Positions 5,038-53,723 of a stretch of 64,000 nt of DNA are shown here, piece by piece. Position 1 is the stretch's first letter. Every line of letters begins with the position of its first letter. The DNA is from Chloroflexota bacterium (GTDB taxonomy: Bacteria; Chloroflexota; UBA11872; UBA12225; JAJDUF01), in NCBI GenBank assembly GCA_965214295.1, contig OZ243944.1, positions 917,099 to 981,098 on the forward strand, read 5' to 3'. The notes beneath the pieces are model-generated. The model was not told the origin of the DNA and ran no database searches. It worked only from the letters and a program-made list of their open reading frames with translations. Made by a program: the position numbers and the translations under genes.

Positions 5038-5269
5038 CGGGCAGCCGATGCAGCCAATCCTCGCACCGCGCCGCTCTGTCCCCGCGTGCGGAGAGCTTTG
5101 CATAAATCGTCATTCCGGCGAAAGCCGGAATCCAAAAACCGGCCCCTCCAGGTTGGCGGGAGCGTGTGTACTACTAACCCATCACTCCATCCAGGGGTTA
5201 TGCAAAGGTCTCCGTGTGCGGGGGAACCGGGGGCGATTTTCACCGTGCCGGCGGTGGGCGTGGGCCACC

Positions 5270-9648: not shown

Positions 9649-9914
9649 GGCCCCCTTTGCGGTTGGATGGAGGTGCTCGTGCCTCCGGTTCCGATGCCAA
9701 GTCCGCTACTACCCGCGACGTAGCCGGCGCTACACCCAGGCGCCCGACCTAGCTCGGCATAGGCGCTGACTGGGAGCGGCCGATTATAGCAGTGCTCGTT
9801 GCGCTGGCCGTCATTTCGGCGCAAGTCGGAAGCCAGAAGGGGGCAGTCGGGACTCCGGTCTGCGCCGGAGTGACGAGACGGGAAGGGGCGCCGTCACTCC
9901 AGTCCCGAATGCCT

Positions 9915-9972
9915 GGATTCCTGCGTTCGCGGGAATGACGGCGGCCTGGATTGCGGCTTCCTCCGCAATGAC
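9915..9972. repeat. two adjacent A-type 25-nt hairpins
   Basis: GGATTCCTGCGTTCGCGGGAATGAC and GGATTGCGGCTTCCTCCGCAATGAC. Confidence 0.8.
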
Positions 9973-11312: not shown

Positions 11313-13347
11313 TGGCGCCGGTCCGGGGAGCGTGATCCCGGACGGTGTCGGGCGGGCGCCGGGGCGCTTTCGGTGGCTCGTCCTTGCCACCATCGCTGCG
11401 ACCTACCTCCTGATCGTGATGGGCGCCGTGGTGCGCGTGACCGGCTCTGGGCTGGGCTGCCCGGACTGGCCACTCTGCTACGGGCGCCTCTTTCCGCCGC
11501 TCGAATTCGCGCCGTTGCTCGAATACACGCACCGGCTCGTAGGCGCCATCGTTTCGGCGCTGATCGTGGCCGTCGTGGGGAGTATCTGGCTGCGCTTCCG
11601 TCACCACCGGCGGCTGGTGGTGCTAGCGAGTGGCGTCGTAGTACTACTGGTCATCCAGATCGGCTTGGGGGCGGTGACGGTCCTCACGGAGCTGTCCCCG
11701 CTGGTGGTGCTCATCCACCTTGGGTTGGCGATGCTGGTGTTGGGTGCCCTGGTCATGCTCGCGGTATACACGGGGCCGGTCGGTGGTGGCGCCCCGACGA
11801 CCGGCGATAGTCGGCAGCCGGAGCAATGGGTGGGGTTCCGCACGCTGGTCCTCACCACCGCAGCGGCCATCTACGCCTTGGTGCTGACCGGCGCGGCCGT
11901 CCGGGCCACGGGCGCTACGTGGTCCTGCATCGGCTGGCCCGACTGCAACGGAATACTGCTCCCGCTGGGGGTAGACCCGCTCGTTGATACTCACCTGCTG
12001 CATCGGTTTACCGCGTACACCATCGCGGTGCTGGCAGTGCTGACGGTGGTGCGGGCGCGGTTGTGGCGGCGCCGGTTTCCGGCGGTGTGGTGGGGGGCGC
12101 TGGCGCTGGTGGCCGGCGTCGTTGCCCAAGGCGCAATCGGGGTTTGGGGAGTCACGGCCGGGTTCGTGCCGCTGGTCCAGGCCCTCCACGTCGCCGGGGC
12201 GTCGGCGGCCTGGACGGCGGCCGTGGCATTGGCCGCGCTGGTGACGCGCTCGTCTGCACCAGCCGCCAGTGGGGGTGTAGCGGAGCCGCTGCCGGCCGAT
12301 GTTGGCCACCGCCGCACCACATCTGGCCGCATCCGTGCGGCGGTGGCCGACGACCCACCGCCGCCCCCTCTCTCTCCGCTGGTAGAGAGAGGGCCGGATG
12401 GTGAAGCCGCCGAGAGATCCCTGTACCGAGCAAGCGCGGAGGGCGTAGGGGCGCAGCATGCTGCGCCCCTACACGACCGCCGTAGGCCACTGTCCGGCTT
12501 CCTGCAGTTGACCAAGCCGCGGATCGTGCTGCTCTTACTCGCGCCGACGCTCTGCGCGATGATCGTCGCCGCCGACGGCTGGCCCTCTCCGCTCCTCGTC
12601 GGCGCGACCCTGTTGGGCGGGGCGCTGGCCGCCGGGGCCGCGAACGCCTTCAACCACTACCTGGATCGCGACATTGACGCGATCATGCGCCGCACCGCGC
12701 ACCGCGCGCTCCCGGCGGGGGTCCTCCGGCCGCGGCAGGCGGTGTGGTTTGGCTTGGTGCTGGCCGCGCTGTCGTTCGTCGTGCTGACCGTGTTTGCGAA
12801 CCTGTTGGCGGCGCTGCTGACACAGGCGGCTATTGTGTTCTACGTCTTCGTCTACACGCGCTGGCTCAAGCGGTCGTCGCCCAGCAATATCGTCATCGGG
12901 GGCGCTGCCGGGGCAGTGCCCCCCTTGGTAGGGTGGGCGGCAGTGACCGAGAGCATCGGGCTGCTCGCGCTGTACCTGTTTGCCATCATCTTCTACTGGA
13001 CGCCGCCGCATTTCTGGGCACTCGCGCTGCTCATCAAGGACGACTACGCCCGCGCGCGTATTCCCATGCTGCCGGTCGTGCGCGGCGGTGCCGAGACGCG
13101 GCGGCAGATCGTGCTGTATTCGCTGCTCATGGTGGCGATCACGCTGCTGCTGGTTCCCTTCCAGCTGGCCGGCCCGTTCTACCTGGCGAGCGCCGTCCTG
13201 CTCGGGGGACTGTTCGTCTTCTATGCGGTGCGTCTGCTGCGCGAGGCCTCGGCGTTGGCGGCCCGGCTCCTGTTCAAGTATTCGGTGGTCTACCTCTACC
13301 TCATCCTAGCGGCTATTGTGGTGGACCAGAAGTTCATCGGCGTTTAA
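11299..13347 (+). CDS. ctaA-ctaB: single ORF encoding haem A synthase (CtaA/COX15) fused to protohaem IX farnesyltransferase (CtaB/COX10)
   Basis: N-terminal GSGLGCPDWPLC plus His-bearing TM helices (CtaA). C-terminal LTKPRIV and NHYLDRDID (UbiA-type CtaB). No in-frame stop. The joint at 12270-12500 is built from palindromic repeats. Confidence 0.85.
   Translation: MSSPSGAGPGSVIPDGVGRAPGRFRWLVLATIAATYLLIVMGAVVRVTGSGLGCPDWPLCYGRLFPPLEFAPLLEYTHRLVGAIVSALIVAVVGSIWLRFRHHRRLVVLASGVVVLLVIQIGLGAVTVLTELSPLVVLIHLGLAMLVLGALVMLAVYTGPVGGGAPTTGDSRQPEQWVGFRTLVLTTAAAIYALVLTGAAVRATGATWSCIGWPDCNGILLPLGVDPLVDTHLLHRFTAYTIAVLAVLTVVRARLWRRRFPAVWWGALALVAGVVAQGAIGVWGVTAGFVPLVQALHVAGASAAWTAAVALAALVTRSSAPAASGGVAEPLPADVGHRRTTSGRIRAAVADDPPPPPLSPLVERGPDGEAAERSLYRASAEGVGAQHAAPLHDRRRPLSGFLQLTKPRIVLLLLAPTLCAMIVAADGWPSPLLVGATLLGGALAAGAANAFNHYLDRDIDAIMRRTAHRALPAGVLRPRQAVWFGLVLAALSFVVLTVFANLLAALLTQAAIVFYVFVYTRWLKRSSPSNIVIGGAAGAVPPLVGWAAVTESIGLLALYLFAIIFYWTPPHFWALALLIKDDYARARIPMLPVVRGGAETRRQIVLYSLLMVAITLLLVPFQLAGPFYLASAVLLGGLFVFYAVRLLREASALAARLLFKYSVVYLYLILAAIVVDQKFIGV
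12304..12472. repeat. mosaic of three different palindromic elements (E, D and C types) forming the ctaA-ctaB joint
   Basis: E: GGCCACCGCCGCAC-N17-GTGCGGCGGTGGCC, 12304-12348. D: CCCTCTCTC...GAGAGAGGG, 12364-12393. C: GTAGGGGCGCAGCATGCTGCGCCCCTAC, 12445-12472. Confidence 0.85.
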
Positions 13348-13802: not shown

Positions 13803-13886
13803 GTCATTCCGGCTTCCGCCGGAATCCAGATGCCTGGGACCGTAGACCGCAACCCCGCCCCGGATTCCCACTTGCGCGGGAATGAC
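13803..13886. repeat. two A-type hairpins in opposite orientation
   Basis: GTCATTCCGGCTTCCGCCGGAATCC (13803-13827) and GGATTCCCACTTGCGCGGGAATGAC (13862-13886). Confidence 0.82.
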
Positions 13887-19321: not shown

Positions 19322-19922
19322 AGGCTACTCCTTTACCGAGAGGACTGCTTGGCGCCTGCTGTGGATTCCCGCTTGCGCGGGAATGACGGATGGGAGGTAT
19401 TTTATAGCAATGACGGGGAAGTGCCAACAGAGCCTAGCCCGTAGCCCAGTCCATAGCAAGGAGCCTGGGCCGTCAGCGCCGGGCAGAGACGTGCAGCGGC
19501 GGCCCTGGGGCGGGTTGGTCAGGATCAGGAGGGCACGAGGCTGGCTACGGCTTGACCGGCAAGAGCCGCGCTGGTCGTGAGACCAAGCCAGTAGATGCTT
19601 GAGGTCACTCGTCCCGGTGGTAGTCCTACCGGCCGGGACCGACCATCGCTCGTACCGAGCGAGCGCACGCGCTGGTGCCGCCACCGTGCCCAGATAAGCG
19701 CTCCGGCACAGCCGGCGGCAATCACCAAACGAATCGCGGCCTGCAACTCCATTGCGTCTCCCCGTGCGACGTTGCGAGTGAGATGTGGCGGAGACATCGG
19801 GGATGCCTCGTGTCATCAGCCGTACCGGGCATCGCCATGCACCGCGGAGTAGATGCAGTGAAAAGAACGATTCGGGCCGAGATGGAGTCGCAGCGGCAGG
19901 ACGCGCCGCGCCGCAAGGCCCG

Positions 19923-29136: not shown

Positions 29137-30417
29137 TCAGGGACGGATCACGGTGCCGTCAACGCGCCGGACGGGTGCCCAGGAGCCGTTGAGGGGATCG
29201 GCCGGAGCCGCACGGGCGGTGCCAGGTGTGGTGCGGCTCCGGCCGGTCAGGGGATGATCAGGGAACGGGAAGCGCCCCGCCAGCGCCTCGTCAACGTCCA
29301 CGCCCAACCCGGGCCGGTCGCTAGGCCACATGTAGCCGTCGCGGATTTCGGGACAGCCGGGGAACACCTCCTGGGTGTTCGCGCCAAAGACGTGCTGCTC
29401 CTGGATACCGAAGTTCCAAACCGCCACGTCCAACTGGAGATTGGCGGCGTGACCCACCGGGGAGACGTCTCCCGGCCCGTGCCAGGCGGTACGCACACCA
29501 AAGAACTCGCACATGGCCGCCAGCTTGCGGGCCATGGAGAGGCCGCCAATCGTCGAGACGTGGACACGAATGAAGTCTATGAGGCGGTCGCGGATGAGGG
29601 GCACGTACTCGGCCTGATTGACGAACAGCTCGCCCATGGCAATCGGTGTACTGCACTGGGCGCGGATCATGCGGAAATACTCGTTGTCCTCGGGCGCCAG
29701 TGCATCTTCGAGGAAGAAGAGCTTGTACGGCTCCAACTCCTTCGCCAAGCCCACCGCCTGGATGGGCGGGATGCGCTCGTGAACGTCGTGCAGCAGCTCC
29801 ACTTCGTCGCCGAGCTGTTCCCGTAGGTACGCGAATAGCTGTGGCACCCGCCGGCAATAGGGCGTCGGCTCCCACGCCGCTGGCACATTGCCGCTGGTGC
29901 CGTAGGTGGAGAGGCCGGGGACGGCGACCTGGCAGCGCACGTAGCGGTAGCCTTGTGCCATGTAGGCGCGCACCTGGTCCGCCACTTCCTGGAAGTCGCG
30001 GCCGGAGGCATGGGCGTAGAGCGGCACCCGGTCGCGGCACTGGCCGCCGAGGAGCTGGTACACCGGCATACCGGCCCGCTTCCCTTTGATGTCCCAGAGC
30101 GCCTAGTCCACGCCGGAGAGGGCGTTGTTCAGGACGGGGCCGCTGCGCCAGTAGCTACTGACGTAGCCGGACTGATAGATGTCCTCGATGTCGTCGGGAT
30201 TGCGGCCCAGCAGGAACGGCCGGAGATAGTCCTGCACGGCCGCAACGACGGCAAGGGGACGCTGGGTGAACGTCGCGCAGCCCAGGCCGTACAGCCCCGG
30301 CTCATTGGTCTCGACCTTGACGACCACCAGCCGGATACCGTCCGGCGCCGTGCAGAGCGCCTTGACGTCGGTAATCCGTAGATCGGGTAATCCGCCGCGT
30401 ACTCCGTGCTCGACCAT
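29137..30417 (-). pseudogene. enolase-superfamily D-mannonate dehydratase (ManD/RspA-like) interrupted by an in-frame TAG at 30103..30105
   Basis: ORFs 30103..30528 and 29137..30069 are colinear in one frame: ...[28 protein letters not shown]. The stop replaces the Met of the conserved VDMALWD motif. Confidence 0.8.
29200..29244. repeat. E-type hairpin element inside the ManD-like coding sequence
   Basis: GGCCGGAGCCGCAC-gggcggtgccaggtgtg-GTGCGGCTCCGGCC. Translated in frame (minus strand) as GRSRTTPGTARAAPA. Confidence 0.85.
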
Positions 30418-30513
30418 CGATGCCGCTCCTTTATCAATGCACGTGATTTTACAGGTTATAAATCTGCGCTGCTCGTGCTCCCAGACGGCTCCGCGCGACA
30501 TTTCGGGCAAAAA

Positions 30514-30553
30514 ACTAGGGTTTTCCACAGGTCAAGACTAGGGTTTTCCACAG
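30514..30553. promoter_or_regulatory. 17-bp perfect direct repeat x2 in the divergent intergenic region (candidate operator)
   Basis: ACTAGGGTTTTCCACAG at 30514-30530 and 30537-30553, spaced 6 bp. Lies between the ManD-like gene (minus) and 30720 (plus). Confidence 0.45.
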
Positions 30554-30719
30554 TGTTTTTCCAGCGCCGGGCAACTAGAGTCTATGTAGTACCTAGCCGG
30601 AGCGCGAGACATGGTTGTTGACCGCGGCGCCTCGCACAGCGACATCGAGCAGGTCCTGGGTGCTCCGGCAGGTAGCTGGTCGGGGAGGCGCGGTCGCTAG
30701 AGAGGAGGGAGACGGAAGG

Positions 30720-31328
30720 ATGAACATTGCGACAGTGCTGGGTGGTGGTCGAGCGTGGTTGGCGCGGCGGGTGGGCGCTTGGGGGTGGGCCGGCAGCGCC
30801 CAGCGACGGCCAGCGACCGGCCCACTGCACCCGCGTAGCCGGGCGTTTTGCTCCGTGCCCCTGGCCCTCGCGACGGTCGCGATTCTGCTGGGGATGGTCA
30901 GCGGGGTGGTCTACGCCGATACCGTAAGTGATGACGGCTGGGTGTATGCGAGCTCAACTGTTTGCGTGAAAGGCCGATCTGAACTTTCCCACGGTAGTGG
31001 TGGCGGTCGCACGGAGGGGGAAGTTCAATCGCGTTATCGGACACCCGTTATATCGTGGGACTGTCAGACTTGGATCCACCGGCCGGTAGGCTACCTTAAG
31101 GTCAACGTCAAGTATTTGTACTGGACGGAGGATCGGTGGAAGGAGTGTGGTGGCACCGGCTGGCAATACAACACCAGCGGCTCTGCTTGGAAAATGAAGG
31201 TTGTACGTAGTTACGGCTCCACACCGGACTGCGGGAGTGGCTACTACGGTACGGACACGGGAGCCTACGTCAATAATGGGGGATGGCATGGAGGTTGGGT
31301 CTGGTCCGGCCAGCTCTATCTCTCGTGA
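30720..31328 (+). CDS. hypothetical secreted/membrane-anchored Cys- and Trp-rich protein
   Basis: GAGGAGGGAG before ATG 30720. One TM/signal anchor (VPLALATVAILLGMVSGVVYA). 4 Cys, many Trp/Gly/Tyr. Lower GC. No family recognised. Confidence 0.6.
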   Translation: MNIATVLGGGRAWLARRVGAWGWAGSAQRRPATGPLHPRSRAFCSVPLALATVAILLGMVSGVVYADTVSDDGWVYASSTVCVKGRSELSHGSGGGRTEGEVQSRYRTPVISWDCQTWIHRPVGYLKVNVKYLYWTEDRWKECGGTGWQYNTSGSAWKMKVVRSYGSTPDCGSGYYGTDTGAYVNNGGWHGGWVWSGQLYLS

Positions 31329-31379
31329 GCGCGGACCGGCGTTGAGTGCAGCATGGCTCAGGAAAAGGAGGCCATAGTG

Positions 31380-31883
31380 ATGGGAGCGCACATGGTGATC
31401 AAGAGACTGGTGTTGTTCGGAGTCGTCTGGCTGGTGAGCGCTGTCGTGACGGTCGGAGTGCTGACCGTGGCGGCGGGGGATTCGGAGGCGGACGCACCGC
31501 CGCCCGATCCCCCGTGGGTCCGGGCGGATGGCACTGTTGACATGTCCAAGATGCCCGATATATGGGAAGTTGCCGGCTCTAAGGGAGAGACTATCGGGTG
31601 GGCCTATTCACCGAAAACTCCAGACTTGGTTCCCTCGCAAGCGCTCTCCGACCATGTTGGAAAGGTCATCGAGAGTGGCCCAGAGCGAGTGGTGATCCAG
31701 GTGGGGCCGGGTGTCACAAGGACCATAGAGAAGGGGGTAGAGACGTTGGTGATCGAGGAGGGAGCGACCGGCTCTGTCGGGGGCCGTCATCCGATCTTTA
31801 GCACGCGCGAAGAAGCGGAACGCTACCGGGACTCGCTGCTGGCCTCAGGCTCCGGCGGTGCCCCGGTGAATGTCAATGATTAG
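31380..31883 (+). CDS. membrane-anchored protein, tandem paralog 1 of 3 (unknown family)
   Basis: AAGGAGG before ATG 31380. N-terminus MGAHMVIKRLVLFGVVWLVSAVVTVGVLTVAAG and C-terminus HPIFSTREEAERYRDSLL..GGAPVNVND are shared with paralogs. Confidence 0.7.
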   Translation: MGAHMVIKRLVLFGVVWLVSAVVTVGVLTVAAGDSEADAPPPDPPWVRADGTVDMSKMPDIWEVAGSKGETIGWAYSPKTPDLVPSQALSDHVGKVIESGPERVVIQVGPGVTRTIEKGVETLVIEEGATGSVGGRHPIFSTREEAERYRDSLLASGSGGAPVNVND

Positions 31884-31915
31884 CGGCTCCCCGACCCGGT
31901 GAGCGGCGGCGCGCG

Positions 31916-31962
31916 GGGCTGCATTGGTGTTCGGAACTTGCTTCGGAATGCCAATGCAGTCC
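31916..31962 (+). promoter_or_regulatory. conserved inter-cistronic stem-loop, copy 1 of 3 (others 32448..32494 and 33013..33059)
   Basis: GGGCTGCATTGG-N23-CCAATGCAGTCC. The loop carries a TTCGGAA direct repeat. Substitutions in copies 2 and 3 keep pairing as G-U on the plus-strand RNA. Confidence 0.5.
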
Positions 31963-31986
31963 GGCGCTTTGTAGGGGGCTATAGCG

Positions 31987-32415
31987 ATGGGAGCGCGAAT
32001 GGTGATCAAGCGAGTGGTAGTGTTCGGAGTCGTCTGGCTGGTGAGCGCTGTCGTGACGGTCGGAGTGCTGACCGTGGCGGCAGGGGTTTCGGAGGCGGAC
32101 ACCCCGCCGCCCGATCCCCCGTGGGTCCGGGGGGATAGCATATGGCCGGTTGCCGGCCCTGAGGGGCGGCAAATTGGGTGGGTCTATCATCCGCCCATTG
32201 ATCTGTCATCCCCGCCGCCCTCGGAACTACCAGCCGACCCCGAGCATAGCAGAAGGATCTTCGATGACCAGGGAGGGGAGACGTTGGTGATCGAGGACGG
32301 ACCGGAGGACCGTCATCACGTGGGACCGATCTTCAGCACCCGCGAGGAAGCGGAACGCTACCGCGACTCGCTGTTGGACGGCTCCGGCGGTGCCCCGGTG
32401 AATGTCAACGATTAG
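31987..32415 (+). CDS. membrane-anchored protein, tandem paralog 2 of 3
   Basis: Near-identical N- and C-terminal ~35-45 aa to paralogs 1 and 3. Divergent, shorter centre. Confidence 0.7.
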   Translation: MGARMVIKRVVVFGVVWLVSAVVTVGVLTVAAGVSEADTPPPDPPWVRGDSIWPVAGPEGRQIGWVYHPPIDLSSPPPSELPADPEHSRRIFDDQGGETLVIEDGPEDRHHVGPIFSTREEAERYRDSLLDGSGGAPVNVND

Positions 32416-32518
32416 CGGCGCTCCGGCCCGGTGAGCGGCAGCGCGAGGGGCTGCATTGGTGTTCGGAACTTGTTTCGGAATGCCAGTGCAGTCCCGCGCT
32501 TTGTAGGGGGCTACAGCG

Positions 32519-32980
32519 ATGGGAGCGCGAATGGTGATCAAGCGAGTGGTAGTGTTCGGAGTCGTCTGGCTGGTGAGCTTTGCCGTTACGGTCGGGGTGC
32601 TGACCGTGGCGGCGGGGGATTCGGAGGCGAACTCACTGCCCCCGCCCCCGCCGGGGGTCCGGGCGGACGGCAGTGTCGACGAGTCCAAGTTGCCCAACAT
32701 AGTACCCGTTGGTGGCCCTGGGGGGCGGCAACTTGGGTGGACCTATGAATCGTGGGGTCCGGACTCGTTTCCCGCGGAACCGCTTGCCGACTCCGAGCAT
32801 AGCAGAAGGATCTTCGATGACCAGGGAGAGACGTTGGTGATCGAGGGAGGAGCGACCGGCTTTGTCGGGGGCGTGTACGATCATCCGATCTTCAGCACGC
32901 GCGAGGAAGCGGAACGCTACCGGGACTCGCTGTTGGCCGGCTCCGGCTCCGGCGGTGCCCCGGTGAATGTCAACGATTAG
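32519..32980 (+). CDS. membrane-anchored protein, tandem paralog 3 of 3
   Basis: Same conserved ends. The centre is partly like paralog 1 (ADGSVDESKLPNI) and partly like paralog 2 (SEHSRRIFDDQGETLVIE). Confidence 0.7.
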   Translation: MGARMVIKRVVVFGVVWLVSFAVTVGVLTVAAGDSEANSLPPPPPGVRADGSVDESKLPNIVPVGGPGGRQLGWTYESWGPDSFPAEPLADSEHSRRIFDDQGETLVIEGGATGFVGGVYDHPIFSTREEAERYRDSLLAGSGSGGAPVNVND

Positions 32981-33147
32981 CGGCGCTCCGGCCCGGTGAG
33001 CGGCGGCGCGCGGGGCTGCATTGGTGTTCGGAACTTGCTTCGGAATGCTAATGCAGTCCGGCGCTTTGTAGTGGGCCGGCCGATAGCGGAGCTTGGTATG
33101 CAGCCAGCCAGCCGGAGGGCAGTGAGGGCTGGGAGAGGGAGGTTGCA

Positions 33148-33594
33148 ATGGGGACTCGGCGCCGGAAGTTGTGGGGATGGGCAGCAGTCGTCTTTAGTGC
33201 GGTCTTACTTGGCGTGATCATGGGGGTGGGAGTGTTCTGGTGGGATGAAATAGTGAATAATTACGATATCTATGGCATCTATCTGTATGTGCGGTTTGTG
33301 CTTCTTATAATGTTTGCTATAGGAAATTGGTTTGCTCATGTGGTGGTGGTGCTCGGATTTTACTTTCTACCTAGTCTCATCGTCGGTGTACGGCAGGTCA
33401 GAGCGGTGCCAATATCCCAAACACGCGACTTCCTCATCAGGCTCGTAGTCGGCATATGGCAGGGAGGCGGTACACCCGGTTGGAGAACCGTATTTCTGAT
33501 CAACATCTTCTTGGGGTGGACGGTGATCGGCTGGTTTGTGGCCTTGCTGATGGCGTTTGCGCGGGAGGATCGCGTGACTCAGACGAGGGAATGA
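33148..33594 (+). CDS. superinfection-immunity (Imm, PF14373-like) family membrane protein with extra N-terminal TM region
   Basis: GGGAGG before ATG. FYFLPSLIVGVRQ...NIFLGWTVIGWFVALLMAF matches the YFLPSxIA...LLGWTxxGWxxALxWA signature. Confidence 0.7.
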   Translation: MGTRRRKLWGWAAVVFSAVLLGVIMGVGVFWWDEIVNNYDIYGIYLYVRFVLLIMFAIGNWFAHVVVVLGFYFLPSLIVGVRQVRAVPISQTRDFLIRLVVGIWQGGGTPGWRTVFLINIFLGWTVIGWFVALLMAFAREDRVTQTRE

Positions 33595-33618
33595 ACCGGG
33601 ATAGAAACGAGCGAGGCA

Positions 33619-33870
33619 ATGGGGTTTATTCCGAGCGGTCCCGAGGTGTGGTTTGTGCTGCCGCTTTTGTTCGTTCAGGTGGTGGTGTTTCTCGGGCTTT
33701 ACTTCCTCCCCAGCATCATAGTCGGTGTACGGAAGGTGAGTGGTGGTACAAATCGTTGGATGACTGTATGCCTAGTCAACCTATTCTTGGGTTGGACGGT
33801 GATCGGTTGGTTTGTGGCCCTGTTGATGGCGTTTGCGCGGGAGGATCGCGCCACTCAGACGCGGGAATGA
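33619..33870 (+). CDS. superinfection-immunity (Imm, PF14373-like) family membrane protein
   Basis: 83 aa. LYFLPSIIVGVRK...NLFLGWTVIGWFVALLMAFAREDRATQTRE. C-terminus nearly identical to 33148..33594. Confidence 0.72.
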   Translation: MGFIPSGPEVWFVLPLLFVQVVVFLGLYFLPSIIVGVRKVSGGTNRWMTVCLVNLFLGWTVIGWFVALLMAFAREDRATQTRE

Positions 33871-34078
33871 CGTACGGCAGATGAGCATAGGAATGACTGC
33901 ACCGGTGGATTCCCGCATGCGCGGGAATGACGACTTTGGCAAAGGTCTCCTGGCGCGGAAAACATGGCGCTTTGCCAGGGACTCCTATGGCCCCCCGCGG
34001 CGGGGGGACGGGCGCAGCGTGCTGCGCCCCTACGGCTTGGCTCGTCCCTACCACAGTCGGCGGGACGGAGGGCAGCGG

Positions 34079-34981
34079 TCAGCCCTTGGCGGCGGTAGAC
34101 TCGGCCGGCTCGGTCGTGTTGGCGAATCCGAACAGGCGGGCCGGTGTTTCCCAGAGAATCTGCCGGCGCTCGTCCGGCGTCAGGGGTAGCTCCTGCTCGA
34201 CGTAACGCAGGGCCGCCGCCAGTGGGACGAGCCGGGCGCTGCGGGGATACCCGGTGCCCCAGAGCAGCCGCGCCGCTCCAAAGCGGTCGGCCAGCAAGCG
34301 CACGAAAGGCCACGTGTCCGCCCACGGGAAGGCTTGCTCACTGGCGATCTGATAATCACCGATCTTGGCGTAGACGTGCGGGTAGTCGGCGAGGCGCAAC
34401 ACCGGGGCGAAACTAGGATACGGCGGCACCTCGGTCACGTCAGGCTTGCCGATGTGGTCCACGATCACCCGCACTTGCGGATGGCGCTCGATCATGCGGG
34501 CCAACGCCGGGGCGTGCTGCGGCAGCATATGGAACTGGAGGATCGCGCCGGTGGTGGCGGCCGCCGCCCAGAGGTCGTCGTGCTCCGGCGCGTCCACCCA
34601 CCAGGCGCCGCGCGGCTCGCGGTCGTAGTAGAGCGGGTGAAAACGGAAACCGGCCAGTCCTTGCGCCATCCACCGCTCCAGGTCGCGCGCGTTATCGGGA
34701 CTTTCCGGGTCCACGAGGCCGATAGCCCGAAACCGGCCGGGGTACCGTTCCAGGCACTCGACCAGATAGGTATTGTTCCAGCCGAACGCGCTGCTCTGCA
34801 CCAAGACGCAATGGGCGACATGGTACTCCGCCATATCCTGCAGCAGCCACTCCACCGGCGCCGCGGCCGTGGGGGGGGACAGCTTGGCATCGGCGGCGGG
34901 TTGGTGGCCCGGCGCATCGTCCAACGGCCACACGTGGACGTGGGTGTCTATCACCTGACGCTCCGAACTGTCACTCCCCAT
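34079..34981 (-). CDS. amidohydrolase-2 family metal-dependent hydrolase
   Basis: VIDTHVHVW N-terminal metal motif. 300 aa TIM-barrel hydrolase pattern. Confidence 0.85.
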   Translation of the reverse strand: MGSDSSERQVIDTHVHVWPLDDAPGHQPAADAKLSPPTAAAPVEWLLQDMAEYHVAHCVLVQSSAFGWNNTYLVECLERYPGRFRAIGLVDPESPDNARDLERWMAQGLAGFRFHPLYYDREPRGAWWVDAPEHDDLWAAAATTGAILQFHMLPQHAPALARMIERHPQVRVIVDHIGKPDVTEVPPYPSFAPVLRLADYPHVYAKIGDYQIASEQAFPWADTWPFVRLLADRFGAARLLWGTGYPRSARLVPLAAALRYVEQELPLTPDERRQILWETPARLFGFANTTEPAESTAAKG

Positions 34982-36391: not shown

Positions 36392-37258
36392 TTAGTCACT
36401 ATCACTGTCATCATCGGTGTCAGTGTCGGTGTCGGTGTCGGTGTCATCGGTGTCACCAGTCGCCGTGGCCGTCGCCGTATCGGTAGCCGTGTCGGTATCG
36501 TCGTCGTCAGTGTCGTCGGTAGCAGTATTCGTCACCGAGGTCCCGTCGTCGGTCGCCGTGGCCGTGGCCGTGGCCGTCTGGCCGTCGGTGGCAGTGGCCG
36601 TCGCTGTGGCCGTCGCCGTGTCGGTATCAGTGTCGTCATCGTCGTCATCATCATCGTCATCGTTGTGGTCGCCAGCGGAGGATGGGCGGGAAGGCACTGC
36701 TGCCTTGCTATCCGGGGACGCCGGATGCGACCTAGGCTCCGGGGGGGGTGGCGGGGTGGTGGTGGCCGCGAGAGTGGAAAGCTGAAGATCGGCTACTGAG
36801 AAACCAAAGTGGCTCTCCCAAGCTGGCTTTCCCATCACAAAGGCACCGTAGTTGGTGCTATTGATCCCAAATAGCTCGACATCGCCAATGGATTGAATGT
36901 GGAACAGCCGCGGCTCCGGCCAGTCGGTCTCCCACTTGGCCAGATAGATCGGATCGCCGTCCTTGAGCAATCCGGCAGACAGCCAGGGAGCACCGCGCGA
37001 TAGGGTACGCAGTTGCTCGGAGCTTACTTCTACGCGGTTATTCCAGTTGATGGGACGCCCGGCCAGGGCGCGCGTATCACCGCCCCAGTGCAAGATGCCT
37101 TGGGCGTCAGCGAACCAGAGATGCGGGGTGCCCTGTAGTGCGACCACCGTACCGTGAGCGAATACGCTCCGTGCCTGCACCGTAGACGCCGGAATAAGTA
37201 TGCTGCCGAGCAGGCCGGCGACGAGCAACACACTGAACCATGACCGTATGCTCTTCAT
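36392..37258 (-). CDS. secreted protein with Pro-rich linker and ~90-aa Asp/Thr/Ala repeat tail
   Basis: Signal peptide MKSIRSWFSVLLVAGLLGSILIPASTVQA. Globular ~150 aa domain. PPPPPEP linker. Tail of D10, (TD)n and (TA)n. Confidence 0.75.
   Translation of the reverse strand: MKSIRSWFSVLLVAGLLGSILIPASTVQARSVFAHGTVVALQGTPHLWFADAQGILHWGGDTRALAGRPINWNNRVEVSSEQLRTLSRGAPWLSAGLLKDGDPIYLAKWETDWPEPRLFHIQSIGDVELFGINSTNYGAFVMGKPAWESHFGFSVADLQLSTLAATTTPPPPPEPRSHPASPDSKAAVPSRPSSAGDHNDDDDDDDDDDTDTDTATATATATATDGQTATATATATDDGTSVTNTATDDTDDDDTDTATDTATATATGDTDDTDTDTDTDTDDDSDSD
36395..36670 (-). repeat. coding hexanucleotide/trinucleotide microsatellites encoding the Asp/Thr/Ala tail
   Basis: Plus-strand runs of GGTGTC (TD), GCCGTG/GCCGTC (TA) and GTC/ATC (Asp). 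Confidence 0.85.
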
Positions 37259-37497
37259 TGTGACCTCCATGTGACCTCTATCGCGGCGGCAGAACCACTA
37301 TGATTGTACCACAATTGTCAACTCTTGCAACGTAGTCCATATAGTCACTATCCCACATAAGATACATCATCACCCGCGAATACCGTCTATTTTTATCGGC
37401 TAATATCGGATATTTGGTCACATAATGATTGCATCTTACCTAACAGCCAACCGGCCGTTACTTATGCACCGACAGGCGCCGGCCGGCCGCGCGTCGG

Positions 37498-40480: not shown

Positions 40481-40559
40481 GTCATTCCTGCTGGCACGGG
40501 AATCCCCGCCGACCGGGGCACACGGCTATATGCTAGATTCCCGCTTGCGCCGGAATGAC
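40481..40559. repeat. two A-type hairpins in opposite orientation upstream of ruvX
   Basis: GTCATTCCTGCTGGCACGGGAATCC (40481-40505) and AGATTCCCGCTTGCGCCGGAATGAC (40535-40559). Confidence 0.8.
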
Positions 40560-40613
40560 GGCCAAGTCTGTGCCGACTTGGCCCTACGTGTGCAGGTGCA
40601 GGTGATAGTCAAG

Positions 40614-44722: not shown

Positions 44723-44811
44723 GACCGCCGGAGTTTTGGCTGGCGAGACGGAACCGGCCGCGCCAGCAGAGTAGTCCTGCTACGGGCATGATTGCAGCGC
44801 AAACGGTGATG

Positions 44812-44856
44812 GGCCAAAGCCGCACGGATAGGGACAGGTGTGGTGCGGCTTTGGCC
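44812..44856. repeat. E-type hairpin element (intergenic, upstream of GT9 gene)
   Basis: GGCCAAAGCCGCAC-ggatagggacaggtgtg-GTGCGGCTTTGGCC, a perfect 14-bp stem. Confidence 0.88.
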
Positions 44857-44865
44857 TATCAGCGC

Positions 44866-45891
44866 GTGCTCGTGGCCCGGCCCGGCGCCCTCGGTGACAC
44901 GCTGCTCGTCGCTCCGGCACTGGCACGACTGCGCCAGGCCCAACCCCAGGCCGAACTGACGTACTGGGGCAATGAACCGGCCGCCGGCCTCCTGCGCCAG
45001 CTAGGCCTCGTGGATCGGGTCGTCTCGTTCGAGCACCTCGCGCTGGTCCCCCTCTTCATCGGCGCCGGTAGTATGCGCGGCCCGGGGGCGGCCAGCCGCA
45101 TTGGGCGGCTGCTCAACCGTCCCGAGGCGGCAGTGCTGTGGCTGCGGCGGAGCGACGATGTGCAGCAGGCACTCGCCGCGCTGAATTGCCCAACGGTGGT
45201 CAGCACACCGTCGCTGCCGCCGGGCGCACGCACCGACGGCACCGTCGAGCCGGGTACAACCCCGTCCCACGTGGCCGTCTACCTCGTGCAGACCCTCGAC
45301 ACCTGGCTCGGGCCGCGTTCGGGCCGCGCGTTACCCTTGTCGCGGCTCGTACCGACGGCAGAAGCGCAGGCGTGGGCTACAGGCCTGTGGCGGCGGCTAG
45401 GCCTCTCCGACGATCAGCCGGTCGTCGTACTGCACCCGGGCAGCGGCAGTGCGCGCAAGAACTGGCCGGTGGAGCGGTTTGCGTCCGTCGCTACGCTGCT
45501 GGCCGCCCAGGACGTGGTCACACTCTTGATCGCGGGGCCGGCGGACGTCACGGCCGCGGCCCGGGTGGCGGCGCTGGCCGGGGAATCTGTCCGCCGGGTG
45601 CCGCCGGCAACGCTCGACGAGATCGCGGCGCTGCTCGGCCGCTGCCGGGCCTATCTGGGGAACGACTCCGGTATTACCCACCTGGCAGCGCTCACCGGGA
45701 CACCGACCGTGGCCATCTTCGGCCCGACCGATCCCACGGTATGGCGGCCGCTGGGGCAGCACGCCCGGGTGGTGCGCGCCGCCGGCCAAGGCGATGCGGC
45801 TTGGCCGACGGTGGAGGAGGTGGGTGAGGCGGTGTTGCTGGCCTTGGATTGTGGCGCCGCACCCCCTGACGGGCCAAAGCCGCACGGATAG
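44866..45891 (+). CDS. glycosyltransferase family 9 (heptosyltransferase-like)
   Basis: VLVARPGALGDTLLVAPAL and GNDSGITHLAA motifs. ORF 44788 includes a hairpin repeat, so GTG 44866 is preferred. The stop codon lies inside another repeat copy. Confidence 0.85.
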   Translation: MLVARPGALGDTLLVAPALARLRQAQPQAELTYWGNEPAAGLLRQLGLVDRVVSFEHLALVPLFIGAGSMRGPGAASRIGRLLNRPEAAVLWLRRSDDVQQALAALNCPTVVSTPSLPPGARTDGTVEPGTTPSHVAVYLVQTLDTWLGPRSGRALPLSRLVPTAEAQAWATGLWRRLGLSDDQPVVVLHPGSGSARKNWPVERFASVATLLAAQDVVTLLIAGPADVTAAARVAALAGESVRRVPPATLDEIAALLGRCRAYLGNDSGITHLAALTGTPTVAIFGPTDPTVWRPLGQHARVVRAAGQGDAAWPTVEEVGEAVLLALDCGAAPPDGPKPHG

Positions 45892-45912
45892 TGCCAGGTG
45901 CGGCTCCCCGGT
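45868..45912. repeat. E-type hairpin element, imperfect copy, containing the GT9 stop codon
   Basis: GACGGGCCAAAGCCGCAC-ggatagtgccag-GTGCGGCTCCCCGGTC. The TAG of ggaTAGtgc terminates ORF 44866..45891. Confidence 0.7.
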
Positions 45913-46003
45913 CGGTCCGGATGGCGGCTTGCGCCGCAGTGACGGGGGCCGGGGTGGGGATGTAGCCACGCACGAAAAAACCTACCCCTATCAGGTGGAT
46001 CTG

Positions 46004-53651: not shown

Positions 53652-53695
53652 GTACGGTTGGCAGTGTTGAACGGGCATTATCGTGAGGCGACGCC

Positions 53696-53723
53696 GTAGG
53701 GGCGCAGCATGCTGCGCCCCTAC
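53696..53723. repeat. C-type 28-nt perfect palindrome
   Basis: GTAGGGGCGCAGCATGCTGCGCCCCTAC, identical to 12445..12472. Degenerate copy near 34008..34033. Confidence 0.9.

Follow-up and report, generated by a model that had tools for sequence, protein, structure and literature searches.

A predicted secreted gene pair beside Imm-family membrane proteins in a variable island of one Chloroflexota clade

Two adjoining units in a variable island

The six-gene block at 30720-33870 of the window (the 64,000-nucleotide stretch of Chloroflexota contig OZ243944.1 analysed here) consists of two units placed side by side. Unit A, comprising gene 1 and three tandem paralogs, is by sequence comparison a two-module secreted protein in split form, with its tail gene triplicated. 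Unit B comprises two small membrane proteins assigned by profile to PF14373, the T4 Imm family. The block belongs to an accessory island whose gene copy number varies within one Chloroflexota clade; its chromosomal site is fixed, with an enolase-superfamily gene on one side and an amidohydrolase gene on the other. We give about even weight to the proposal that it encodes a secreted gene-1/tail pair together with a membrane protector. The features of the region are as follows.

29137-30420, - strand: left border, enolase-superfamily (MR_MLE) pseudogene (in-frame stop and repeat insertion)
30421-30719, + strand: conserved leader/divergent intergenic region (83-90% identity across all clade loci)
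30720-31328, + strand: gene 1, predicted secreted beta-sandwich protein, 202 aa (family profile match, E 3e-77)
31380-31883, + strand: paralog 1, 167 aa, cassette type A (alignment, cassette comparison)
31911-31967, + strand: conserved hairpin 3' of paralog 1 (inverted repeat I3)
31987-32415, + strand: paralog 2, 142 aa, hybrid of cassette C (HPPIDLSSPPPSELPAD) and cassette B (alignment, cassette comparison)
32443-32499, + strand: conserved hairpin 3' of paralog 2 (RNA fold -58.4 kcal/mol, z -4.6)
32519-32980, + strand: paralog 3, 153 aa, cassette type B (alignment, cassette comparison)
33008-33064, + strand: conserved hairpin 3' of paralog 3 and 5' of the Imm genes (-65.2 kcal/mol, z -3.5)
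33148-33594, + strand: gene 5, Imm-family membrane protein, long form, 148 aa (PF14373, PHROG 1039, hydropathy)
33619-33870, + strand: gene 6, Imm-family membrane protein, short form, 83 aa (PF14373, PHROG 1039, hydropathy)
33871-34078, no strand: right border, spacer with short dispersed repeats (blastn of the spacer against the window)
34079-34981, - strand: Amidohydro_2 gene, 3' of the right spacer (synteny with clade loci)

The layout recorded in an initial annotation of this DNA, six co-directional small genes with short gaps, is real: all six ORFs are intact, and the gaps from gene 1 to gene 6 are 51, 103, 103, 167 and 24 nt. The lower-GC patches it described were likewise found, GC3 of the six genes being 0.61-0.76 (lowest in gene 5) versus 0.78-0.84 in flanking genes, with window GC dipping to 0.51-0.57 across 33000-34000. 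The same holds for the pseudogene on one side and the repeats on the other. The MR_MLE pseudogene contains an in-frame stop (SGVD*ALWDIKGKRAG, with Q at the stop position in relatives) and, at 29200-29257, an in-frame insertion of 57 nt that is a palindromic repeat; L002, L003, L005, L006, L022 and L023 have an intact gene (407 aa). Further copies of the right-spacer repeats were located within the window at 5082-5134, 9914-9940, 12435-12472, 13862-13886, 19361-19388, 40536-40560 and 53693-53723. The flanks of the block contain no phage genes.

The leader is kept whether gene 1 or a paralog comes first downstream. It carries a tandem 20-nt repeat, AA(A/G)ACTAGGGTTTTCCACAG, at 30511-30530 and 30534-30553 (1-3 copies per clade locus), together with the ribosome-binding site of gene 1, GGAGGGAGACGGAAGG; a sigma-70 consensus was not detected.

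Gene 1 and its family

Gene 1 had been described as a signal-bearing, W/G/Y-rich protein with four Cys and no recognisable family. The first part is confirmed: a single hydrophobic stretch spans residues 40-69, ending in VYA and followed by D, and the protein has four Cys in its mature part (plus one in the signal region), 13 Trp, 31 Gly and 12 Tyr. The lack of a family holds for the curated libraries, Pfam and NCBIfam yielding no match at E<=1, but not overall, as profile searches place gene 1 within a large uncurated family, of which it is a divergent member. This comprises 679 representative clusters at E<=1e-3 (362 at E<=1e-10) and is spread over Actinomycetota and Chloroflexota, named sources including Glycomyces, Thermoflexus and Streptomyces megaplasmids. 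None of 117 family members matched Pfam; the family likewise gave no match to NCBIfam or, by sequence, to PDB chains, and no member was found in 50,697 phage records.

An AlphaFold2 model of gene 1 (117 sequences) is all beta, with a mean pLDDT of 85.9 and ~97 over residues 68-202, and module 1 is thus predicted to be an Ig-like beta-sandwich with two disulfides. Conserved across the family are H67 (85%), H91 (87%), H199 (91%), the four Cys (98-100%) and Y176 (99%). The first of these His is the first mature residue, in the context A-x-A then H-Y-V-Y; the other two sit in SHGxGGGY and WSGxHxLP. His-to-Asp swaps are common at two of the three positions. The window copy keeps the four Cys and carries D67 and L199 in place of His, leaving one of the three.

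A conserved N-terminal His is a hallmark of histidine-brace copper proteins. Unit A could accordingly be read as a metal-binding (probably copper) or redox module acting outside the cytoplasm, like CopC, YcnI and LPMOs, with the Imm genes as unrelated neighbours. The N-terminal His, two further conserved His, the invariant Tyr and the Asp swaps are all consistent with such a role, as are the beta-sandwich, signal peptide and disulfides of the family. Judging from strand register, H67 and H91 would share one open end of the beta1-beta2 hairpin (strands 68-77/81-90), and all three His may cluster in space. However, Foldseek comparison of the model with the PDB returned nothing at E<=1e-3, with no LPMO, CopC or YcnI in the top 50, and the sequence searches of PDB chains were equally blank. 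No copper transporter or copper regulator was seen beside the examined gene-1/tail loci, and the window copy itself is without two of the three His. We therefore regard a metal-binding role as unlikely.

The paralogs correspond to a tail module

The paralogs bear the motif PPWVRxDGTVDxSKLP, which forms a fused C-terminal tail in about half of the long gene-1 homologues: a tail regular expression was matched by 12 of 28 long family representatives, with P0124 and P0127 added by eye, and by none of 124 short ones. Both modules hence occur in one polypeptide in about 14 representatives, about a tenth of those examined. The Pro-linked tail that makes up module 2 reads PPWV(R/K/N)xDGT(V/I)DxSKxP...PVxGPxG. 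In paralog 1, a signal-anchor or signal peptide at the N-terminus precedes the PPWVRADGTVDMSKMP tail motif, which is followed by a variable centre and, at the C-terminus, by a conserved PIFSTREEAERYRDSLL segment; paralog 2 is without the DGTVDxSKLP portion of the motif. Alternative starts for paralog 1 are present at 31353 and 31392.

The same association was seen from both directions. Outward from gene 1, a tail gene lies directly downstream in L007, L009, L010 (weak tail), L027 and Streptomyces L024/L025. Outward from the motif, a DNA-pattern scan of metagenomes gave nine loci (six separate tail genes, one fused, two chance matches), and each of the five separate tail genes whose upstream DNA was available had a gene-1 homologue immediately upstream. 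A separate tail gene thus lies directly 3' of a gene-1 homologue in nearly every independent lineage sampled, and the two families co-localise in many independent contexts. Since the motif is fused in some homologues and an adjacent gene in others, we infer that gene 1 and a paralog constitute a split two-module secreted protein, one that is widespread in Actinomycetota and Chloroflexota. The separate tail gene has its own signal peptide or anchor. The Glycomyces gene-1 homologue stands alone, and four clade loci (L001, L003, L005, L022) retain an intact paralog without gene 1, so that a paralog may function without it.

The initial annotation had also raised a toxin with immunity proteins. 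In a bacteriocin or polymorphic-toxin locus of this kind, gene 1 would be the secreted toxin and the three paralogs a cognate/orphan immunity array. A secreted Cys-rich protein followed by a variable tandem array fits that arrangement, and the four loci with paralogs and no gene 1 are what orphan immunity genes would leave. The reading is weakened by the fused representatives, in which the gene-1 domain and the paralog motif form one secreted polypeptide, unlike a toxin and its antidote. Furthermore, the motif common to paralogs and fused tails is the conserved part and the variable part is lineage-specific, and no export, processing or toxin domains were detected with Pfam and NCBIfam. We consider a toxin locus very improbable.

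Mosaic centres, conserved ends and hairpins

Alignment bears out the three tandem paralogs with near-identical ends and mosaic centres. Paralogs 2 and 3 are 69-73% identical to paralog 1, and all are near-invariant over the first ~48 and last ~30 residues, with substitutions and indels in the centres. Paralog 3 has ADGSVDESKLP and GATGFVGG in common with paralog 1, and GGPGGRQLGW and SEHSRRIFDDQGETLVIE in common with paralog 2. The closest orthologue-like copy of paralog 1 is L001a (89% identity), and the nearest relative of paralog 3 is the single paralog of L022. The cassettes recombine, because P0008 joins the cassette C of paralog 2 to a cassette D. With shuffling observed across genomes, the centre appears to be a shuffled cassette set that also circulates among related genomes.

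The paralogs do not have the signature of decaying duplicates: dN/dS is 0-0.32 at the C-terminus (dS 0.10-0.39), about 0.5 at the N-terminus and 0.58-1.43 in the centre. These values point to purifying selection keeping the ends, and gene conversion probably also contributes.

A hairpin follows each paralog, and these are its only three copies in the window. The 103-nt spacer after paralog 1 folds with -56.4 kcal/mol (z -4.2), and its hairpin is kept in clade loci with one compensatory pair. The hairpin at 33008-33064 was considered as a canonical intrinsic terminator and rejected, a T-run being absent after it.

Imm genes and the variable clade loci

The assignment of genes 5 and 6 to the superinfection-immunity family withstood profile searches. 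Gene 5 matches PF14373 over a partial model (36.6 bits, E 4e-9) and gene 6 over the full model (49.7 bits, E 3e-13), both above the gathering score of 27.9 bits; both also match PHROG 1039 'immunity to superinfection' (gene 6 at E 1.7e-13). Their C-termini are nearly identical, as first noted. Gene 6 has two hydrophobic stretches (6-40 and 48-74), and gene 5 has an additional hydrophobic helix at its N-terminus and ~30 inserted aa that separate the two halves of the PF14373 core. Weak tblastn matches connect gene 6 to Imm-like genes in Gordonia, Mycobacterium and Enterococcus phages.

The window island (gene 1, three paralogs, two Imm genes) is one of several configurations in the clade. L001 has two paralogs and one Imm gene, L003 one paralog and two Imm genes, L005 and L022 one of each, and L023 an Imm gene only. 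L008 has a 5'-proximal frameshift in gene 1, a broken paralog and two Imm genes; L006 has a truncated paralog remnant and an Imm gene. Most clade members lack gene 1 or carry it frameshifted or degenerate. Most loci have intact Imm genes, the exceptions being error-prone L002, where they are frameshifted, and L006, where the N-terminus may be truncated. Several related contigs are long-read assemblies of low coverage (1x to 5x), and frameshifts there may be errors.

Such losses could suggest that the block is a decaying remnant without current function, as could the adjoining pseudogene, the low GC3, the conserved residues lost from gene 1 and the damaged paralogs of L008 and L006. We judge this extremely unlikely, as the six window ORFs and most clade Imm genes are intact, the leader is conserved, and the paralog C-termini diverge synonymously with almost no amino-acid change.

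Paralog and Imm genes occur together in six of nine clade loci. PF14373 genes accompany gene 1 or the tail only in syntenic loci of this clade, which are hence phylogenetically non-independent, and none was present in any non-syntenic gene-1/tail locus examined. Outside syntenic loci, the anticipated co-occurrence thus applies to paralogs with gene 1 and not to PF14373, and the Imm adjacency could be an accidental accumulation in a variable hot spot. In several lineages (L009, L010, L015/L018, L024/L025, L027) the gene-1/tail pair is followed, in a third slot, by a small protein that has 1-3 hydrophobic helices or a lipobox; these proteins show no detectable homology among themselves or to PF14373. 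L007 has nothing in the slot, and in Thermoflexus L026 a transposase fragment interrupts it. In the clade studied here, the Imm proteins fill this slot.

T4 Imm binds the tape-measure protein, blocks pore formation and genome translocation, and was likened by the study authors to colicin immunity proteins (bioRxiv 10.64898/2026.03.06.709160). This block on translocation and the Imm membership of genes 5 and 6 would fit an integrated envelope defence, in which diversifying surface paralogs and Imm jointly exclude phage or foreign DNA at entry, like the periplasmic Spackle and membrane-located Imm of T4. The joint occurrence in the clade, the single strand and one conserved leader for all genes agree with it. 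So do the low GC3, the mosaic cassettes and the strong variation of the island in gene presence and copy number, all of which would be expected of conflict loci. Nevertheless, the conserved partner of the paralog is gene 1 and not Imm, and the non-syntenic loci are devoid of PF14373. PADLOC gave no significant match for any of the six proteins, and the paralogs have no significant PHROG match (best E 0.22), hence none to Spackle. With the gene-1 family also absent from phage records and the flanks free of phage genes, joint exclusion seems doubtful to us.

A proposed secreted pair with a membrane protector

Of the initial proposals, envelope or secreted proteins are supported, while a single six-gene system of conserved composition is not, PF14373 being confined to syntenic clade loci and gene 1 being missing or damaged in most clade members. 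Cooperation of paralogs and Imm survives in a weaker form, as a third-slot membrane protein after the pair, and not as an integrated module. In our favoured model, the beta-sandwich and tail proteins would act jointly outside the membrane, anchored tail proteins holding or presenting the beta-sandwich at the cell surface. The small membrane protein would protect or couple the producer's own membrane, a role modelled on partner binding and pore block by T4 Imm. Unit A may be degenerating in this clade, because two of the three His are gone from the window gene 1 and most relatives have no gene 1 or a broken one; the island would then be drifting to 'tail + Imm' or 'Imm only'.

Comparison with known systems

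Like the histidine-brace proteins (LPMO AA9/AA10, CopC, YcnI), the gene-1 family is predicted to comprise secreted beta-sandwiches with His as first mature residue and His/Tyr candidate ligands. Some CopC sites have Asp in place of His, as do some family members. In contrast to those proteins, the gene-1 domain is smaller (about 135 aa) with two disulfides, shows no sequence or Foldseek similarity to them, and in the window copy carries Asp and Leu instead of two of the three His.

As in bacteriocin and pore-forming colicin loci, a small membrane protein with little conservation comes after the secreted gene(s) on the same strand, and a protector-only locus exists (L023). Unlike those loci, the block has no recognised killing domain, export or lysis gene, and its beta-sandwich family carries a conserved putative metal site and no toxin signature.

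Genes 5 and 6 differ from T4 Imm in being chromosomal in Chloroflexota with no phage genes in the flanks, in forming a long/short pair whose long form has the extra helix and insertion, and in having no direct BLAST similarity to T4, weak matches coming from actinophages and Enterococcus phages. They belong to the same Pfam family, and gene 6 also matches T4 Imm in length (83 aa) and in having two hydrophobic segments. From this homology, both would be expected in the cytoplasmic membrane, binding a membrane-inserting partner.

The Spackle and Imm genes are non-adjacent in T4. The paralogs have no detectable similarity to Spackle (Pfam, PHROG), and their conserved partner, gene 1, is absent from T4. 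As with the two-layer superinfection exclusion by T4 Spackle (Sp) and Imm, one genome encodes both a small exported protein and a membrane protein of the Imm type, suggesting by analogy a possible periplasm-plus-membrane division of labour.

Organisation of the block

The block consists of six co-directional open reading frames on the plus strand, as the initial annotation described, separated by gaps of 51, 103, 103, 167 and 24 nt. Its lower GC content and its position between a pseudogene on the left and repeats on the right were likewise confirmed, by GC3 (0.61-0.76 in the six block genes versus 0.78-0.84 in flanking genes), by an in-frame stop and by blastn-type repeat copies, respectively. 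The features are as follows.

29137-30420, minus strand: enolase-superfamily (MR_MLE) gene, in-frame stop at 30106-30108
29200-29257: in-frame insertion of a ~57-nt palindrome, located in the 3' portion of the enolase-family pseudogene
30511-30530 and 30534-30553: tandem 20-nt repeat AA(A/G)ACTAGGGTTTTCCACAG, in the spacer separating the divergently oriented enolase pseudogene and gene 1
30720-31328, plus strand: gene 1
31380-31883, 31987-32415 and 32519-32980, plus strand: tail paralogs 1, 2 and 3
31911-31967, 32443-32499 and 33008-33064: hairpins of ~57 nt, one after each paralog, absent elsewhere in the 64 kb
33148-33594, plus strand: gene 5, Imm gene (PF14373), long form
33619-33870, plus strand: gene 6, Imm gene (PF14373), short form
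33905-33932 and 34010-34036: short dispersed repeats in the right spacer

The stop in the enolase-superfamily gene (SGVD*ALWDIKGKRAG) replaces a Gln found in all relatives, and could reflect a true pseudogene or a base error. The ~57-nt palindrome looks like a dispersed REP/MITE-like repeat family. Similar palindromic copies are located at 44805-44862, 63304-63352, 60757-60795, 12311-12350 and 45872-45913, while copies of the right-spacer repeats occur at 5082-5134, 9914-9940, 12435-12472, 13862-13886, 19361-19388, 40536-40560 and 53693-53723. Intergenic spacers of the window hold at least two types of short dispersed repeat, one of which includes TTCCCGCATGCGCGGGAATGAC. The product of an ORF at 36392-37270 (minus strand) is a secreted protein whose C-terminus is a long, low-complexity Asp/Thr/Ala tail (DDDDDDDDTDTDTATATATAT...TDTDTDTDDDSDSD); the antisense strand of this DNA also carries a long ORF, which is repetitive. 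Spurious long ORFs in antisense are frequent in the window, as expected at ~65% GC.

Folding energies of the spacers that bear the hairpin range from -56 to -65 kcal/mol (z -3.5 to -4.6). Every related locus retains the hairpin downstream of its paralogs, and one G-C/A-U pair is compensatory. Since it lacks a trailing T-run, it may act in mRNA stabilisation or processing rather than as a terminator. A promoter scan found no sigma-70 consensus, and the 'terminators' in the spacers proved to be just the first arm of the larger hairpin. Related loci carry the 20-nt repeat one to three times at the corresponding position, and we regard it as a candidate operator. Scans of the whole window (1-64000) detected neither tRNA genes nor any Rfam family reaching its gathering score.

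Gene 1 belongs to a large uncurated beta-sandwich family

Gene 1 encodes a 202 aa protein with a single hydrophobic stretch ending at VYA (followed by Asp), four Cys in the mature part and a Trp/Gly/Tyr-rich composition, in keeping with the signal-anchored protein first described. The accompanying statement that it belongs to no recognisable family holds for Pfam and NCBIfam, neither of which gave a match, and fails in that an exhaustive profile search revealed a large uncurated family (679 representative clusters at E<=1e-3, 362 at E<=1e-10), to whose profile the window copy aligns at E 3e-77. A word-indexed search with gene 1 recovered five relatives only. Most family members are secreted proteins of 160-180 aa; they derive from, for example, Glycomyces and Thermoflexus hugenholtzii, where they are annotated just as 'hypothetical' or 'secreted', and are also carried by Streptomyces megaplasmids. 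No significant Pfam match was obtained for 117 gene-1 homologues, fused members, tail proteins or third-slot membrane proteins, and no NCBIfam model matches gene 1, the paralogs, the gene-1 family or their associates. Among PDB sequences, no chain matches the gene-1 profile (best E 0.34, to antibodies).

The structural comparison proposed in the initial annotation was run for gene 1, and gave a confident model with no solved relative at E<=1e-3. AlphaFold2 with a 117-sequence alignment predicts an all-beta protein (mean pLDDT 85.9, ~97 over residues 68-202; 41.8 with a 5-sequence alignment). Foldseek searches of this model against the PDB and viral structures returned nothing at E<=1e-3; placement in a solved fold family was rejected, the matches being generic Ig-like sandwiches only.

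Three His positions and four Cys characterise the family. The consensus start is A-x-A followed by H-Y-V-Y, His being the first mature residue in 85% of members (H67). Further His occur in S-H-G-x-G-G-G-Y (87%, position 91) and W-S-G-x-H-x-L-P (91%, position 199), and at the first two of the three sites His is often replaced by Asp. Each Cys is present in 98-100% of members, and Y176 in 99%; C82, C115, C143 and C171 are all kept in the window gene 1. Strand register in the AlphaFold2 model would place residues 67 and 91 together at one end of the first beta-hairpin. The His pattern suggests a putative metal site involving the N-terminus. On this basis one could envisage a module that handles metal and is unrelated to the neighbouring Imm genes; we consider this rather unlikely. 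The family's three His (mature residue 1, SHG and WSGxH) are not all found in the window copy, which reads D67/H91/L199, a set that no other member of the 117-sequence alignment shows; this copy is degenerate. A canonical H/H/H homologue (WP_448601162.1) is encoded in the cultured Chloroflexota species Thermoflexus hugenholtzii (JBRCHF010000099.1, 4001-4976 of locus L026).

Gene 1 and the tail paralogs are partners

Gene 1 homologues occur fused to a tail module defined by the motif PPWVxxDGT(V/I)DxSKxP. The corresponding regular expression matches 12 of 28 long (>=220 aa) representatives, two more show the motif by eye, and it is absent from all 124 short members. The fused tail sits directly after the sandwich domain (e.g. 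...HLLPALDSPPQPPWVRSDGTVDPSLLPDNVPVAGPDGEP in the fused protein P0060), and its motif is the same as that which opens the paralog ectodomain (PPPDPPWVRADGTVDxSKLPDIxPVAGPxG). The full motif is present in paralogs 1 and 3, while paralog 2 keeps PPWVRGD with the remainder deleted.

Where the two modules are separate, they are mostly neighbours. Starting from gene-1 homologues outside the clade (the Chloroflexota genomes with the island at the same chromosomal site), a tail gene lies immediately downstream in loci L007, L009 and L027 and in the Streptomyces plasmids L024/L025, with a weaker version in L010. The exceptions are Glycomyces, where the homologue stands alone with a partial fused tail, and Thermoflexus, where a DDE transposase fragment occupies the expected tail-gene position. 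Sampling outward from the tail, a degenerate DNA-pattern scan of JGI metagenomes yielded nine loci: six separate tail genes, one fused protein and two chance matches (eukaryotic zinc-finger genes). A gene-1 homologue is directly upstream in all five separate tail genes for which upstream DNA is present. Co-localisation of the two families in other genomes, a check proposed in the initial annotation, is borne out in both directions. Gene 1 and the paralog are partners, and the fusions and two-way adjacency argue that they constitute a split two-module protein. The pair lies outside any curated family or solved fold detectable here, and the split/fused relationship appears undescribed; literature searches on the sequence motifs, the family and PF14373 returned nothing relevant beyond a study of T4 Imm.

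The fusions weaken the alternative of a toxin accompanied by a paralogous immunity array, which we regard as highly unlikely. Neither was any toxin, export or processing component of a bacteriocin or toxin locus recognised: gene 1, the paralogs and 117 family members match no Pfam or NCBIfam domain.

Three copies of the tail gene carry recombining cassettes

The three paralogs (167, 142 and 153 aa) are 69-73% identical, and alignment confirms the near-invariant ends (first ~48 and last ~30 residues) and mosaic centres noted at the outset. Only 10 proteins among 5.8 billion resemble them. Pairwise Nei-Gojobori estimates, which rest on small counts, differ along their length.

Table. Pairwise dN/dS and dS among the paralogs
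C-terminal ~30 codons: dN/dS 0-0.32, dS 0.10-0.39
N-terminus: dN/dS about 0.5, dS 0.12-0.25
Centre: dN/dS 0.58-1.43, dS 0.31-0.64

By these values the ends are held by selection on the protein, and gene conversion probably aids their sameness given that the inter-paralog spacers are 89-95% identical. The centre appears relaxed or diversifying. The ratio of about 1 throughout expected of unexpressed, decaying duplicates was not found; these selection data and the intact ORFs weaken the notion that the block is a decaying remnant, which seems extremely improbable. Across genomes the centres behave as recombining cassettes: window paralog 1 matches the first L001 paralog (L001a), paralog 3 matches that of L022, and the second L001 paralog (L001b) matches that of L005. 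HPPIDLSSPPPSELPAD is common to window paralog 2 and the related protein P0008, with a different cassette following in paralog 2.

Tail proteins outside the clade begin with a canonical cleavable signal peptide (e.g. MKKIRVSLVVGAMAGMMLLGGALMANASA, followed by D). The window paralogs share a conserved, unusually long 24-residue hydrophobic segment (Kyte-Doolittle), which would be more in line with an uncleaved anchor than with a cleaved signal peptide.

The Imm association is lineage-specific

The Imm proteins are true PF14373 family members, and the original assignment withstood profile searches. Both genes pass the gathering threshold of 27.9 bits, gene 6 at 49.7 bits (model positions 1-42 of 42) and gene 5 at 36.6 bits (positions 13-42), and they match PHROG 1039 ('immunity to superinfection') at E 1.7e-13 and 7.2e-9, respectively. 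Kyte-Doolittle analysis places hydrophobic stretches at residues 6-40 and 48-74 of gene 6, and at 7-33, 40-84 and 114-139 of gene 5, in agreement with small integral membrane proteins. The two proteins add to a family that is already known. In T4, pore formation is blocked by Imm, which binds gp29, the tape-measure protein (bioRxiv 10.64898/2026.03.06.709160), and an integrated phage-exclusion module can be conceived along these lines, with a probability we consider low. Searching the six proteins against PADLOC-DB 2.0 gave a sole, non-significant match (gene 5 to PDC-M31B, E 0.023, 12.3 bits), and Pfam, NCBIfam, PHROGs and PADLOC together returned nothing significant beyond the Imm matches.

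Local HMM searches find Imm-like ORFs confined to syntenic clade loci, and a word-indexed search with gene 5 retrieved 13 proteins, all of the clade. Because a PF14373 gene is absent from every non-syntenic gene-1/tail locus examined, the Imm association is lineage-specific, without independent replication, and the initial proposal that gene 1, the paralogs and PF14373 co-occur as a system could not be upheld. A small membrane protein gene nevertheless follows the secreted pair in five of seven non-clade lineages and, as Imm, in the clade (raw count). The products in this third slot are listed below.

L024/L025 (Streptomyces): 87 aa, three hydrophobic helices
L015/L018: a protein of 88 aa (one helix) followed by one of 89 aa (three helices)
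L009: 75 aa, one helix
L010: 50 aa, one helix
L027: 94 aa, lipobox

These proteins have no detectable relation to one another or to Imm; the recurrence of a small membrane protein at this position is suggestive.

The block is a composite island

Contigs of paralog relatives, two complete Chloroflexota MAG chromosomes and contigs found via gene 1 and Imm are all syntenic, with an MR_MLE enolase-family gene on one side of the island and an Amidohydro_2 gene on the other. A 280-nt leader is 83-90% identical across clade loci, irrespective of the first gene downstream. The block is a composite island of variable content.

Table. Island content in the window and related clade loci (gene 1; tail paralogs; Imm genes)
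Window: present; 3; 2
L008 (complete genome at 115x): present but frameshifted at the N-terminus; 1, in two pieces; 2
L001: absent; 2; 1
L003: absent; 1; 2
L005, L022: absent; 1; 1
L006: absent; C-terminal remnant fused to leader; 1
L023: absent; 0; 1

The unit of gene 1 and paralogs is eroding in this clade, and Imm is the most persistent component, being the sole one left in L023. Paralog decay takes different routes in two complete genomes: a deletion in L006 (5887-6165) fuses the gene-1 start codon region to the C-terminal 57 codons of the paralog, and in L008 (8523-8988) the paralog is in two pieces (76 aa and 48 aa). The downstream Imm genes are intact in L008, while the single Imm gene of L006 may be N-terminally truncated. 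Every island gene is frameshifted in a further locus, L002; we rejected it as evidence of pseudogenisation, since its amidohydrolase gene is likewise frameshifted and the contig was assembled from long reads at 5x, making sequencing errors the probable cause. A prophage remnant was also rejected, given that syntenic housekeeping genes flank the island and that gene 1 lacks homologues in phages.

Proposed function and comparison with known systems

We tentatively propose that the secreted pair would act at the outer face of the membrane, and that the small membrane protein, here Imm, would protect or couple the producer's membrane; taken by itself, this is possible but not probable. It is quite unlikely that the gene-1 family represents a new class of small secreted metal (copper) protein using an N-terminal His, forming a three-part envelope system with its tail partner and a small membrane protein, with the membrane part replaced by a T4-Imm-type protein in the clade and the tail turned into a recombining multi-copy cassette family. 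If true, a phage superinfection-immunity fold would serve as protector in a cellular, polymorphic effector/protector locus.

An apparent orphan is now placed in a sizeable family from soil and marine Actinomycetota and Chloroflexota, with a testable signature (N-terminal His, two further His, two disulfides) and with the tail module as its defined partner, in the same polypeptide or from the adjacent gene. Carriers in culture (Streptomyces megaplasmids, Thermoflexus hugenholtzii and Glycomyces) make the family open to experiment; the pay-off for the window itself is limited, since it carries a degenerate gene 1 and comes from an uncultured host. The range from full island to Imm only offers a natural series for asking what role chromosomal Imm-family proteins have in bacteria.

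With respect to known systems, the blocking of phage genome entry via tape-measure binding is a feature of T4 Imm, a mechanism known for T4 only. The N-terminal mature His of histidine-brace copper proteins (LPMO/CopC/YcnI) is found in 85% of the gene-1 family, whereas the window copy has Asp, and no such family is among the top 50 Foldseek PDB matches of gene 1, nor any at E<=1e-3.
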